A stretch of DNA of 64,000 nucleotides from an uncultured Clostridia bacterium. Its GTDB lineage: Bacteria; Bacillota; Clostridia; TANB77; CAG-508. The position numbers and the translations under genes were made by a program. The notes under the pieces were generated by a model. It was given only the letters and a program-made list of their open reading frames with translations, had not been told where the DNA came from and ran no database searches. Within the stretch, counting starts at the first letter, position 1, and every line of letters begins with the position of its first letter. The DNA lies in NCBI GenBank assembly GCA_947623865.1, contig CANQIC010000005.1:2105-66104 (forward strand), in the 5' to 3' direction. Shown one piece after another: positions 5,609-18,982 of the stretch.

Positions 5609-5802
5609 AAATTGTTGTTTGTAAAATATCAATTGATTTCTAGAAAAGGTTATATTTATTTGTTTCTCAGTTACGCGATCCAGCTTTCGTTACATGAAAC
5701 TGTTGTTGCTTTAGCAACTTACAGGTTCAGTAACGGAATTCGCGTTGGAAACAAATAAATAAACCTTTTCTAGAGAACACTTAATTAAATAAATTACAAT
5801 TT
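5609..5802. repeat. 194-bp hairpin-forming repeat, copy A (inverted partner at 18789..18982)
   Basis: 193/194 identical to the reverse complement of 18789..18982. Internally it folds as a long imperfect hairpin: 28-bp AT-rich arms (tctagaaaaggtt..tttatttgtttc) around a relatively GC-rich asymmetric core. Confidence 0.9.
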
Positions 5803-5879
5803 GCAAAAATTACGTATATACATTTATTTATTTATATGATAAAATATTTATATTATTTTATATTTAAAGGAGATTCACA

Positions 5880-7419
5880 ATGAAAAATAAAGAAACTATT
5901 GTAATTCTAGATTTTTATAGCCAATTTAATCAATTAATAGCAAGACGTGTTAGAGAATGCAATGTATATTCAGAGGTATTGCCTTATGATGTATCCATTG
6001 AAAGAATTAAAGAAATTAACCCTAAAGGAATAATATTTACAGGAGGACCTGCAAGCGTATATGAGGATGATAGCCCAAAATGTGACAAAGAAATATTTAA
6101 TTTAGGTATTCCAATTCTTCGGAATTTGTTATGGTATGCAATTTATGAGTAATACATTAGGAGGAAAAGTAGAAAAAGGAACAAAAAAAGAATATGGAGA
6201 AACAGAAGTAAGTTTAAATACTTCTTCTCCACTCTTCGAAGGGTTTGATAATAAAAATATTTGTTTAATGAGTCATACGGATTTAGTAAAAGAATTGCCA
6301 TCTGGATTTAGATCAATTGCAACTACTGACAATTGTCCTACTGCAGCTATAGAAAACAAAGAATTAAATTTCTATGGTATTCAATTTCATGCAGAAGTAA
6401 ATAATACAGTAAATGGCGTTCAGATAATTAGAAATTTCTTATATAACATATGTAAATGTTCTGGTGATTGGGTAATGTCATCTTTTGTAGAAGAATCTAT
6501 TAAAAATTTAAAAGAAAAAATCGGAGATAAAAAAGTATTACTTGCTTTATCTGGCGGTGTTGATTCTTCAGTTGCGGCAGTTCTTTTACACAAAGCAATT
6601 GGAAAACAACTAACTTGCATATTTGTAGACCATGGTCTTCTTCGTAAAAACGAAGGTGATGAAGTAGAAAATATATTTAAAAATCAATTTGATATAAATT
6701 TGATTAGAGTAAACGCTGAAGAAAGATTCTTATCGAAACTTGCCGGTGTTTCTGAACCAGAAAAGAAAAGAAAAATAATTGGTGAAGAATTTATTAGAGT
6801 ATTTGAAGAAGAAGCCAAAAAAATAGGAACAGTAGATTTTTTAGTTCAAGGTACAATATACCCTGATGTTATAGAAAGTGGTAAAGGAAAAGCTGCAGTA
6901 ATTAAAAGTCATCACAATGTAGGAGGACTTCCAGACTATGTAGATTTTAAAGAAATTATAGAACCTTTAAGAGATTTATTTAAAGATGAAGTTAGAAAAA
7001 CTGGTTTAGAATTGGGTATACCTGAAATGTTAGTATTTAGACAACCATTCCCTGGTCCTGGACTTGCAATTAGAATTATTGGAGATATAACAAAAGAAAA
7101 GCTAGAAATATTAAAAGATGCTGATTATATATTTAGAGAAGAAATTGCAAATAATGGATTAGATAAAGAATTGAACCAATATTTTGCTGTTCTTACAAAT
7201 CTTAAATCAGTTGGTGTTATGGGAGATTACAGAACTTATGATTACACACTTGCTTTGAGAAGTGTTTGTACAACAGACTTTATGACAGCAACTTGGAGCA
7301 GAATTCCTTACGACATATTAGAAAAAGTATCAAGTAGAATTGTAAATGAAGTAAAACATATAAATAGAGTTGTATATGATATAACTTCAAAACCACCAGC
7401 AACAATTGAATGGGAATAA
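5880..7419 (+). CDS. guaA: GMP synthase (glutamine-hydrolysing), requires +1 shift at in-frame CGG 6120
   Basis: ORFs 5880..6152 and 6136..7419 join as ...[27 protein letters not shown] when the C at 6120 is skipped. The GATase catalytic Cys motif GICYGMQ and the ATP-PPase motif SGGVDSS are present. Restored length is 512 aa. Confidence 0.9.
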
Positions 7420-7444
7420 ATATATAATATAATAAGATAAATAC

Positions 7445-7475
7445 AAAAAGCAGGAATATCATTTTCCTGCTTTTT
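7445..7475. terminator. bidirectional terminator between convergent guaA and LRR gene
   Basis: AAAAAGCAGGAA-loop-TTCCTGCTTTTT hairpin with A/T tracts on both sides. Confidence 0.65.
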
Positions 7476-7508
7476 GCTTGAGTAAGTTAAAGTGATTATC
7501 AGGCTTAG

Positions 7509-8135
7509 CTATTCTTTTTTAGAAATATTGATAGTAGTTAGAGACTTGCAAGAATCAAATGCATTATAATGAATTTGAATTACACTATCTGGAATAGTGA
7601 TGTTTTTTAAACCTGTACAGTTAGCAAATATATGATTTTCAATCACTTTTATTTTTCCTGAAATAGTAACATTTGTTAGTGCAGTACAGTCAGCAAATGC
7701 ATACGTACCAATTTTAGTTACACCTAGAATAATAACATCTGTTAGACTAGTACAGCCATAAAATGCCTCCTCACCAATCTTAGTTACATTTTCTCGAATA
7801 ATAACATCTGTTAGACTAGTACACAAAGCAAATGCATCATCACCAATTTCTTTTAAAGTACTTGGCAGTTTAGCACTTGTTATTCTTTTACATCCCTTAA
7901 ATGAACAATCATCAATTTTGATTACACCTTCTGGAATAATAACATCTGTTAGGCTAGTACAGCCAGAAAATGCCCATCCACCTATTTCTTTTAAAGTACT
8001 TGGCAGCTTAACACTTGTTAGGCTAGTACAGCCAGAAAATGCTTCCTCACCAATTTTAGTTATACCTTCCGGAATTACTAATTCTGATTCTTCTCCATTA
8101 TACCGAATTAGTATCGAGCCTTGTATTTCAAACAT
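7509..8135 (-). CDS. BspA-type leucine-rich repeat protein (paralog 1, 208 aa)
   Basis: About 23-aa repeats (CTSLTxVxxPxxxxxIGxxAFxx). N-terminus MFEIQGSILIRYNGEESELVIPEGITKIG is shared with the two larger paralogs. In-frame CGG at codon 11. Confidence 0.8.
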   Translation of the reverse strand: MFEIQGSILIRYNGEESELVIPEGITKIGEEAFSGCTSLTSVKLPSTLKEIGGWAFSGCTSLTDVIIPEGVIKIDDCSFKGCKRITSAKLPSTLKEIGDDAFALCTSLTDVIIRENVTKIGEEAFYGCTSLTDVIILGVTKIGTYAFADCTALTNVTISGKIKVIENHIFANCTGLKNITIPDSVIQIHYNAFDSCKSLTTINISKKE

Positions 8136-8239
8136 ATAATTCTTCCTCCTTAATTTTAATTAGGTTTTTATTAATGCTATAACGAACCCTTACTCACAGT
8201 TTGCATAGCTTGCGACATGTATTATGTCTACATGTTAAC

Positions 8240-17433: not shown

Positions 17434-17491
17434 ATATTATTCCATCCTTTATACAAATTTTTAGGTTGCATAAATTGCAACCTATTTATTA

Positions 17492-17671
17492 TTATAAATA
17501 TAACCCAAAATCATCATTTTTGTTTTCTACAGGTTTTTCCTTTTGCTCCTTCATTTGTAACGCATATTTATCATAGTTAGTAGTTATATTTCTAATATAG
17601 TCTGACATAGTTTGATTACCTGCATCCTTTCCTAATTGAGATAAAATACTTTTTCTATAAAAATCTATCAT
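17492..17671 (-). CDS. small hypothetical protein (59 aa)
   Basis: MIDFYRKSILSQLGKDAGNQTMSDYIRNITTNYDKYALQMKEQKEKPVENKNDDFGLYL. ATGA start/stop overlap with the upstream gene. Falls below the ORF-track length cutoff. Confidence 0.4.
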   Translation of the reverse strand: MIDFYRKSILSQLGKDAGNQTMSDYIRNITTNYDKYALQMKEQKEKPVENKNDDFGLYL

Positions 17672-18210
17672 GCAATATTTACCTCCTTTGCTATATTTAT
17701 AAATTCTTTAAAATCATTCAAATAGGCATTATTGCAATTTTTTAAGTTTCTACTCTCTAATAATATCAAAGCTTCTTCTATTGGAAAAGCTATTCTTTCT
17801 GGCCTATCTAAAAGCATACCTCCAAATTGATCTGCAATCTCTAATATATCACTTTCTTTTTTTCTAGGTAGACTATTACTGTATCTATTTTGCTGCTCAC
17901 ATATTATACAAAAATCTTTAGAAAAGCCAAGTTTTGCTAAAAAATCTGCTCCTTCCTTTGCATAAGCTTTTATTTTTTCCATATCTTGAGCATTATTTAC
18001 TTTTTTACATCCACATAATAACATAGCTGTTATTACTTTATTTTTATCTACTTTTATATTCATAGTGTCAATAAATAAACTCACAATTAATGCTTTAAAA
18101 ATTACAGAATTATCAAAAAATATATTTGTTTTTTTCTTTAAATATGACATTATTTCTACTTTTTTACCAAAATCTTCTTCTGCTAATATATATTCTGCAA
18201 ATGTTTCCAT
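17668..18210 (-). CDS. hypothetical protein
   Basis: ORF 17668..18222. The ATG at 18210 has a GGAGG RBS at good spacing. No family recognised. Confidence 0.5.
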   Translation of the reverse strand: METFAEYILAEEDFGKKVEIMSYLKKKTNIFFDNSVIFKALIVSLFIDTMNIKVDKNKVITAMLLCGCKKVNNAQDMEKIKAYAKEGADFLAKLGFSKDFCIICEQQNRYSNSLPRKKESDILEIADQFGGMLLDRPERIAFPIEEALILLESRNLKNCNNAYLNDFKEFINIAKEVNIA

Positions 18211-18325
18211 TATTGCCTCCATATACCTTTATTTTTATCCATTATATTCCAAAAGATATTGGATTTTCAACAATGTTACGCAAATGTAATATTAATGTAA
18301 TTTTTTGGTAATAGATTAAGTTTTT

Positions 18326-18761
18326 TCAATTAGCTTTAATCTCTCCTCTTGCAAGTTCATCACATCTATTATTAAATTCATTATCACTATGACCTTTCAC
18401 TTTTATAAATTTTACTCTATGTATTTTTGTTAAATCATAAAGTTCTTGCCAAAGTTCTTTATTCTTTACAGGATCTTTTCCTGATGTTTTCCAATCGTTT
18501 TTAATCCAATTATATATCCATCCATTATTAAATGCATTTATGACATAGCTACTGTCACTATATACTTCTACTTCACATGTTCTTTTAAGCTGTTTTAAAG
18601 CTTCTATTACAGCAGTTATTTCCATTATATTATTAGTAGTTTTTTTATTGCTACCACTTATTTCCTTTTTTACATCATTAAACATTAAAATTGCACCCCA
18701 TCCTCCAGGTCCTGGGTTTCCGTGAACACGCTCCGTCTGTGTATATTGTAACTTTGTCCAT
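18326..18761 (-). CDS. rnhA: ribonuclease HI, requires +1 shift at in-frame CGG (18722-18720)
   Basis: ATG at 18761 (AAGGAG RBS) gives [13 protein letters not shown], then CGG. Skipping the C gives [14 protein letters not shown]..., the canonical RNase HI N-terminus (TDGxxxGNPGPGGxG). Restored length is 144 aa. Confidence 0.85.
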
Positions 18762-18788
18762 ATCAAATTCTCCTTTATTTTATTATAT

Positions 18789-18982
18789 AAATTGTAATTT
18801 ATTTAATTAAGTGTTCTCTAGAAAAGGTTTATTTATTTGTTTCCAACGCGAATTCCGTTACTGAACCTGTAAGTTGCTAAAGCAACAACAGTTTCATGTA
18901 ACGAAAGCTGGATCGCGTAACTGAGAAACAAATAAATATAACCTTTTCTAGAAATTAATTGATATTTTACAAACAACAATTT
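18789..18982. repeat. 194-bp hairpin-forming repeat, copy B (inverted partner of 5609..5802)
   Basis: The reverse complement matches 5609..5802 at 193/194 positions. The single mismatch is at 18956 vs 5635. Confidence 0.9.

Follow-up and report, generated by a model that had tools for sequence, protein, structure and literature searches.

Two inverted 194-bp repeats of a Clostridia contig as probable independent insertions of a MITE-like palindromic element family

The window analysed here is a 64,000-nucleotide stretch of an uncultured Clostridia bacterium (contig CANQIC010000005.1, assembly GCA_947623865.1) that was recovered from a rabbit-gut metagenome. It holds two near-identical inverted repeats of 194 nt which bracket the genes from guaA to rnhA, and an original prediction had considered this 13-kb bracket as a possible substrate for inversion and the repeat itself as a possible structured RNA gene or as a MITE-like element in two copies. 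Based on the present data, we judge with a probability of about 0.85 that the two repeats are independent insertions of the 194-bp type of a non-coding, palindromic family of mobile elements, which resemble MITEs (miniature inverted-repeat transposable elements), end in AAATTGTWRTTTGT termini, and occupy intergenic spacers in an AT-rich clade of uncultured rabbit-gut Clostridia. An enzyme supplied in trans would recognise the termini and move the elements, with a preference for A/T-rich sites similar to the terminus itself. Within the element, an invariant core of 103 nt would be kept by purifying selection, whether as a cis-acting DNA site for mobilisation or as a structured RNA. Two separate insertions into ancestral spacers would have left the inverted pair around guaA...rnhA as a by-product, and homologous inversion, for which the pair would be no more than a passive substrate, would be rare.

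The inverted pair and its dispersed family

A repeat search of the window returned arms at 5609-5802 and 18789-18982, each of 194 nt, which are 99% complementary and separated by 12,986 nt. When copy 1 (5609..5802, plus strand) was read directly against the reverse complement of copy 2 (18789..18982, minus strand), 193 of the 194 positions matched, the single mismatch being a G at 5637 versus an A, and the predicted repeats are therefore real. Copy 1 is located in the spacer that separates guaA from the divergent LysM gene, with its right end 77 nt from the guaA start, and the right end of copy 2 is followed after 22 nt by the ATG of rnhA. Within the window, a 24-nt core word is confined to the pair, with one occurrence in each copy, and it does not occur at all in shuffled sequences. 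The gene content assigned to the segment was confirmed by Pfam, which gave guaA, guaB, BspA-type leucine-rich repeat (LRR) genes, a XerD-like recombinase, SpoIIM, a PHP/HhH protein and RNase H.

Folding of both strands bore out the long imperfect hairpin that had been proposed for each copy (plus strand −79.4 kcal/mol, z = −8.9; minus strand −65.7 kcal/mol, z = −10.6). In the folds, a rod-like hairpin of about 140 nt (5637..5776, plus strand) consists of AT-rich outer arms, TCTAGAAAAGGTT... and ...AACCTTTTCTAGA, around an asymmetric core. This core of 103 nt, TTATTTGTTTC...GAAACAAATAA, is invariant, extends over 5656..5758 on the plus strand in copy 1 and over 18833..18935 on the minus strand in copy 2, and is capped by an apical GTTGC-TTTA-GCAAC hairpin. 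All nested stems that had been named beforehand (ACGCGA/TCGCGT, CGTTAC/GTAACG, GAAACTGT/ACAGGTTC and GTTGC/GCAAC) are present in the consensus fold.

The MITE-like part of the original prediction stands, but the count of two copies does not, because many copies exist. In the source metagenome the depth of the element core was 12-19 times that of the unique flanks. The unique flanks had a contig depth of 4-7 in runs X1-X3, as against 67-82 for a 143-nt core unitig, and the element was joined in these runs to many different loose-end flanks that start exactly at 5607-5609 and at 5802. It should be noted here that contig depth pools all organisms of a sample, and that the number of copies per genome can thus be given only as about ten or more. 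We also ran an exact core 20-mer against a set of genomes in which 185,579 species are represented by one genome apiece. This gave 29 loci, all of which belong to four metagenome-assembled genomes (MAGs) from rabbit that are named "uncultured Clostridia bacterium" (16 loci in Lapin-013_bin23, 11 in Lapin-026_bin100, and one each in Lapin-014_bin29 and Lapin-002_bin17). BLAST aligned every one of these loci across positions 1-194, so that the ends are sharply defined. Since copies of the family are 96-100% alike within a genome, the near-identity of the pair in the window does not point to a local duplication or gene conversion, as had been proposed. The element was also found in runs X5, X7 and X9 from other studies, where it has 2-4 differences and other flanks. 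Two core patterns had no match in the JGI (Joint Genome Institute) metagenomes, and the element was found neither in an IMG/VR search nor by blastn among plasmids and phages. Searches for RNA runs with the element or with guaA, and for nanopore runs, likewise gave nothing.

The copies fall into subfamily A, which comprises those of the window and of Lapin-026, and subfamily B, which comprises those of Lapin-013. All full copies have inverted termini in their outermost 14 nt, AAATTGTWRTTTGT, at both ends, and the two ends match each other at 11 of 14 positions in subfamily A and at 13-14 of 14 in subfamily B and in the copy at locus L019. In copy 1, the left terminus is AAATTGTTGTTTGT (5609..5622, plus strand), which is kept in all full copies and is also present on elements with unrelated interiors, and the right terminus is ATAAATTACAATTT (5789..5802, plus strand; reverse complement AAATTGTAATTTAT). 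Immediately outside the ends of 25 copies we found A at −2 in 23, T at −1 in 21, A at +1 in 16 and T at +2 in 21, with AT on both sides in 12 of them. The dinucleotide AT (or TA, if the boundary is shifted by one) is self-complementary, and may therefore represent either a 2-bp duplication or an extension of the termini. Direct repeats of 1-6 bp were sought at four boundary offsets, which revealed only this self-complementary AT/TA signal and no repeat of at least 3 bp.

The elements are 193-198 bp in size, and all copies are intergenic. No open reading frame (ORF) of at least 70 residues runs across any copy, the longest internal ORF on direct reading having 6 codons. They lie close to genes: for 21 of 28 adjacent gene ends the distance to an element end is between −9 and +12 nt, and in six cases the stop codon is supplied by the TAA or TAG within the terminus (AAA TTG TAR). 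Several copies have a gene start at 13-23 nt from their right end, and for gene starts on the left side the distance is 22-68 nt. Orientation showed no bias among co-directional gene pairs (10:6) nor relative to the local GC skew (14:12, p = 0.85), which speaks against both a strand-specific leader RNA and a single-strand mechanism tied to the lagging strand. Subfamily A has promoter-like hexamers close to both ends that are not conserved in subfamily B, and conserved outward or inward promoters were rejected for this reason; the TACAAT hexamer that lies 2 nt from the end inside the right terminus is no more than a promoter-like match. Comparisons by eye with hammerhead-like and attC-like motifs were unconvincing, and comparison by eye with dif consensus sequences revealed no convincing full site of the 28-bp kind (XerC arm, 6-nt spacer, XerD arm) that bounds Xer/dif-dependent modules such as IMEX and pdif modules.

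Orthologous spacers without the element are present in relatives for both copies of the window. The spacer between rnhA and the nucleotidyltransferase gene measures 289 nt in the window. In the sister species Lapin-026_bin100 and in three further contigs (L030-L033, nucleotidyltransferase 95% identical), it lacks the element and measures about 95 nt. The spacer between the LysM gene and guaA measures 400 nt in the window, and 182 and 166 nt, both without the element, in relatives with 95% and 90% identity, respectively; this site is unoccupied in L043-L045. The order XerC-like gene, LysM, guaA, guaB is kept in the relatives that have no element. Because both adjacencies persist in element-free relatives, the junctions are ancestral, and the window records two independent insertions and no inversion.

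MITEs are usually shorter than 200 bp, have terminal inverted repeats (TIRs) around a core, fold into a long stem-loop and need a transposase in trans (PMC3184786). We applied a size limit of less than about 400 bp together with the lack of a transposase gene, and found small elements of this kind that have TIRs, dispersed copies with common sharp boundaries, and presence/absence polymorphism at orthologous sites. Several points nevertheless weigh against the MITE-like reading. Because the AT at the flanks reads the same on both strands, there is no demonstrable target-site duplication. The unoccupied sites, which come from other species, are 1-5 nt off the filled ones and give no clean duplication either. 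In about 400 kb of loci we saw neither an autonomous element nor a transposase with these termini. Autonomous elements were also sought as pairs of termini 0.04-3.5 kb apart; with 3 mismatches allowed this was too noisy in DNA of 27% GC, and with 2 mismatches it returned only small elements and chance matches in coding DNA. Finally, conservation is far higher in the interior than in the arms, which is the reverse of a passive MITE interior.

Other interiors between the same termini and the reuse of sites

The same MAGs and their relatives contain elements that share the termini and the AT flanks and have unrelated interiors. These include a 146-bp type (L015:4861-5006 and 6957-7102), a 187-bp and a 153-bp type (L010:870-1056 and 2358-2510, respectively), a 133-bp type (L035:2301-2433) and a 190-bp type (L046:1228-1417). 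Several of these sister types contain GTAGGGG...CCCCTAC hairpins that have the look of repetitive extragenic palindromic (REP) doublets.

Different types were found at the same or nearly the same positions. In the rnhA spacer, the L035 element and the copy of the window use the same right junction even though their cargo differs, and upstream of guaA the L046 element, again with another cargo, lies 5 nt from the insertion point in the window. Three alleles occur at the metK 3' end in close relatives: Lapin-026 has the 194-bp type (L006:3800-3993), a contig from another sample carries the 146-bp type (L053:2002-2147, 145/146 identical to an L015 copy), and the species of the window has a terminus followed by a GGGGCC..GGCCCC hairpin (L052:2002-2060). 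L006 and L053 represent strains of one species, with metK 98% identical and 79 of 80 flanking positions the same; their junctions are identical and the same element end points towards metK. All three metK alleles open with AAA TTG TAA, which is at once the native end of metK and the first 9 nt of the terminus. Indeed, a MetK C-terminus ending in ...KL predominates among the 120 homologues listed, nearly all of which have 369 residues. The unoccupied sites resemble the terminus as well, with GAATTGTATTTT at rnhA and ATATTGCAATTTAT at guaA.

Empty sites within the species of the window were also considered. At the locus corresponding to L006, the joint in this species is the third metK allele and not an empty site, and the L015 locus is filled in contigs of this species too. 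A same-species empty site for the copy at L009 was rejected, because three short contigs begin inside the element and the site is consequently filled.

The reuse of sites, as read from the three AT-rich sites compared, suggests either a strong preference for targets that look like the terminus or an exchange of cargo at the termini. The second option leads to an explanation in which the elements would move by site-specific recombination at their termini, with cargos being inserted or exchanged there, instead of by a cut-and-paste DDE transposase. The identical junctions and end orientation of the 194-bp and 146-bp types at metK speak for it, as do the right junction common to the window and L035, the L046 element 5 nt away at guaA, the terminus-like native or unoccupied sequence at all three sites, and the failure to see a clean target duplication. 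However, all three sites consist of AT-rich, low-complexity DNA, the predicted crossover products are one T off at two of them, and the elements have no recombinase linked to them. Sequences similar to their own ends are also targeted by some DDE transposases, and homologous exchange of flanks between strains could spread alternative alleles that already exist. We therefore regard site-specific recombination as possible but unlikely.

The invariant core and the remaining explanations

Copies are on average 98.0% alike within subfamily A and 96.6% alike within subfamily B, but only 82% alike between the two; for comparison, Lapin-013 and the window have about 87% identity over one shared 3-kb stretch. 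The differences are distributed very unevenly along the element. Between the consensus sequences of A and B, only 2 of 104 core columns differ as against 31 of 94 arm columns (Fisher p = 9e-10), and changes private to single copies of subfamily A amount to 2/1040 in the core versus 18/940 in the arms. Within the core, paired and unpaired positions are equally invariant. Pairing in the arms is retained where they change, the consensus fold having an AU to GC change at alignment columns 39/168 and an AU to UA change at 51/157. Run X7 has a paired A>G plus T>C change at 5644/5769, and a contig of run X14 is exact over 5680-5758, beyond which the arm diverges. Because the core never varies, covariation provides no test of its structure. 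Copies that consist of arms only or of the core only, which would indicate that the core is a nested insert, were not found. In one subfamily-B copy (L023:2005-2235) the left arm is interrupted, with GAGAGGAAAATTCTAGGGACTGTCCTGAATTC in place of the normal sequence and with the terminus AAATTGTTGTTTGT displaced outwards by about 25-35 nt.

This pattern raises the question whether the 103-nt core is the selected part, either as a structured small RNA gene or as a protein-bound DNA site, with the termini as mere carriers. The contrast between core and arms, both among consensus sequences and among private changes, the equal invariance of paired and unpaired positions, the strong fold (z of about −9 to −11) and the survival of arm pairing through changes on both sides are all consistent with this idea. 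On the other hand, Rfam 15 gave no match for the whole window at gathering thresholds, and the covariance-model check that had been suggested gave no relevant match in 5400-6000 even at E-values up to 10. The element has no conserved promoter or terminator, given that the promoter-like hexamers vary between the subfamilies, and its orientation is random relative to both genes and skew. The unvarying core leaves no covariation to read, and the pair-preserving arm changes would be expected equally of inverted protein-binding arms or of DNA hairpins. A functional core of this kind thus appears rather improbable as the full explanation. The invariant core and the reuse of sites are nonetheless not explained by a plain MITE model. 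In a combined form, which we put forward tentatively and consider similarly doubtful, the 14-bp termini would be docking sites of a site-specific system that swaps palindromic cargos at positions mimicking the terminus, such as the metK AAA TTG TAA, and the selected 103-nt core would act as a structured RNA or as protein-binding DNA.

A further proposal for the pair in the window was a 13-kb inversion, which in its functional form would involve RecA or Xer-like recombinases flipping the segment and thereby altering the expression of guaA, rnhA or the LRR genes. Genes for tyrosine recombinases are indeed present at 4147-5124 and 13694-14575, and inverted repeats of 194 bp with 99.5% identity have a sufficient length for RecA-dependent inversion to take place occasionally. 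However, both outer junctions are the ancestral adjacencies, contigs of the same species from three other samples assemble the LysM-element-guaA junction as it is in the window, and the GC skew within the segment (8-18 kb) is the same as in the 45 kb that follow. The XerC-like neighbour, which had been pointed out beforehand, is syntenic in relatives without the element and is therefore a resident gene and not a partner of the repeat; its proximity is coincidental, since the other 29 copies do not adjoin recombinase genes. The element also occupies roughly 10 or more other sites, and nothing sets this pair apart. Invertible switches of the Hin, Gin and Fim type likewise have inverted repeats around a gene-bearing segment with recombinase genes nearby, but the repeats described here are dispersed, their junctions are ancestral, and all assemblies examined show a single orientation, although these are short-read contigs from which a minor inverted subpopulation might escape. 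A functional invertible module is therefore very unlikely. As a separate observation, gene calling in the 90% relative (L044:1-782) divides the XerC-like gene upstream of LysM into pieces of 133 and 155 residues, where a frameshift or recoding is possible.

Between copy 1 and guaA lies the probable guaA promoter, TATACA-17-TAAAAT with a TG (5817..5845, plus strand), which is outside the element; its box TGATAAAAT is kept in relatives whether or not they bear the element. A cis-regulatory leader, such as a riboswitch or attenuator common to guaA and rnhA, is barely credible: both copies in the window do point their right end at a gene start (77 nt and 22 nt away, respectively), but the conserved guaA promoter lies 3' of copy 1, which is thus outside the leader of this gene, the same genes are expressed in relatives that have no element, co-directional orientation is 10:6, the flanking genes are functionally unrelated, and Rfam gave no match.

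Some further features of the segment are recorded here for their own sake. A BspA-type LRR gene of 208 residues (7509-8135) lies between guaA and guaB, and in the relatives L043 and L044 these two genes are directly convergent, 29-56 nt apart, without an LRR gene between them, which indicates that the segment gained its LRR genes recently. A 47-nt sequence with the palindrome AAAAAAGTATTAAGAATCCTTAATACTTTTTT, which looks like a bidirectional terminator, is present beside copies of the LRR genes at 11823-11869 and 13621-13667. Both guaA (6118-6123) and rnhA (18719-18724) are split at an in-frame CGG, and removal of the C at this position restores a conserved motif in each, G-I-C-Y-G-M-Q in guaA and S-G-N-P-G-P-G-G-W in rnhA. 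In relatives with 88-95% identical GuaA the gene is uninterrupted and encodes 512 residues, and the extra C of rnhA is missing in L034 and retained in Lapin-026 (L030).

Relation to known repeats and implications

The closest analogues of the element are the Correia and ERIC (enterobacterial repetitive intergenic consensus) repeats, and it is a member of neither. Like the Correia elements of Neisseria (Correia repeat enclosed elements, CREE, also known as NEMIS, Neisseria miniature insertion sequences), it is non-coding, measures 100-200 bp, has inverted termini around a core and folds into a long stem-loop. Both occur in many intergenic copies near gene starts and ends, vary in presence between close strains, have an A/T dinucleotide at both flanks and contain promoter-like hexamers near their ends. 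However, there is no sequence relation, the termini measure 14 bp instead of 26 bp, the host is a Clostridia clade, and the TA duplication of Correia elements is not demonstrable here. In addition, the interior is more conserved than the arms in the present family, and unrelated cargos share termini and sites. Owing to the differences in termini and host, the element is an analogue of Correia/CREE and not a member of that family.

ERIC sequences are imperfect palindromes of about 127 bp that are intergenic, highly conserved across species, and bounded by TIRs, each terminus also having a TA motif (PMC3184786). The element resembles them in being palindromic, intergenic and conserved in sequence and in having TIRs, but it belongs to a different phylum and its sequence is different. 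To our knowledge, no modular cargo variants at identical sites have been described for ERIC. REP sequences and REPINs, which are mobilised by RAYT proteins (REP-associated tyrosine transposases, of the IS200-like Y1 type), are likewise palindromic intergenic repeats, and the sister types described above have hairpins that look like REP doublets. In contrast to these GTAG-led, GC-rich hairpins without TIRs, the 194-bp type lacks a GTAG sequence combined with a GC-rich hairpin, has AT-rich arms and TIRs, and shows no strand or replication bias.

The main value of these results is corrective. The 13-kb bracket is neither a switch nor a composite element, and the proper annotation for the region from guaA to rnhA is therefore ordinary chromosome into which two repeats have inserted. 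The same caution against over-reading applies to further pairs of this repeat elsewhere in the genome. The family itself constitutes a repeat system, so far undescribed and apparently active, in a clade of uncultured gut Clostridia. It shapes intergenic spacers of 20-60 nt, supplies or overlaps stop codons, lies 13-23 nt from start codons, and breaks short-read assemblies. The combination of a frozen core with fast-changing pairing arms, together with the reuse of sites, offers a handle on how such elements choose their targets and on which part of them is selected.

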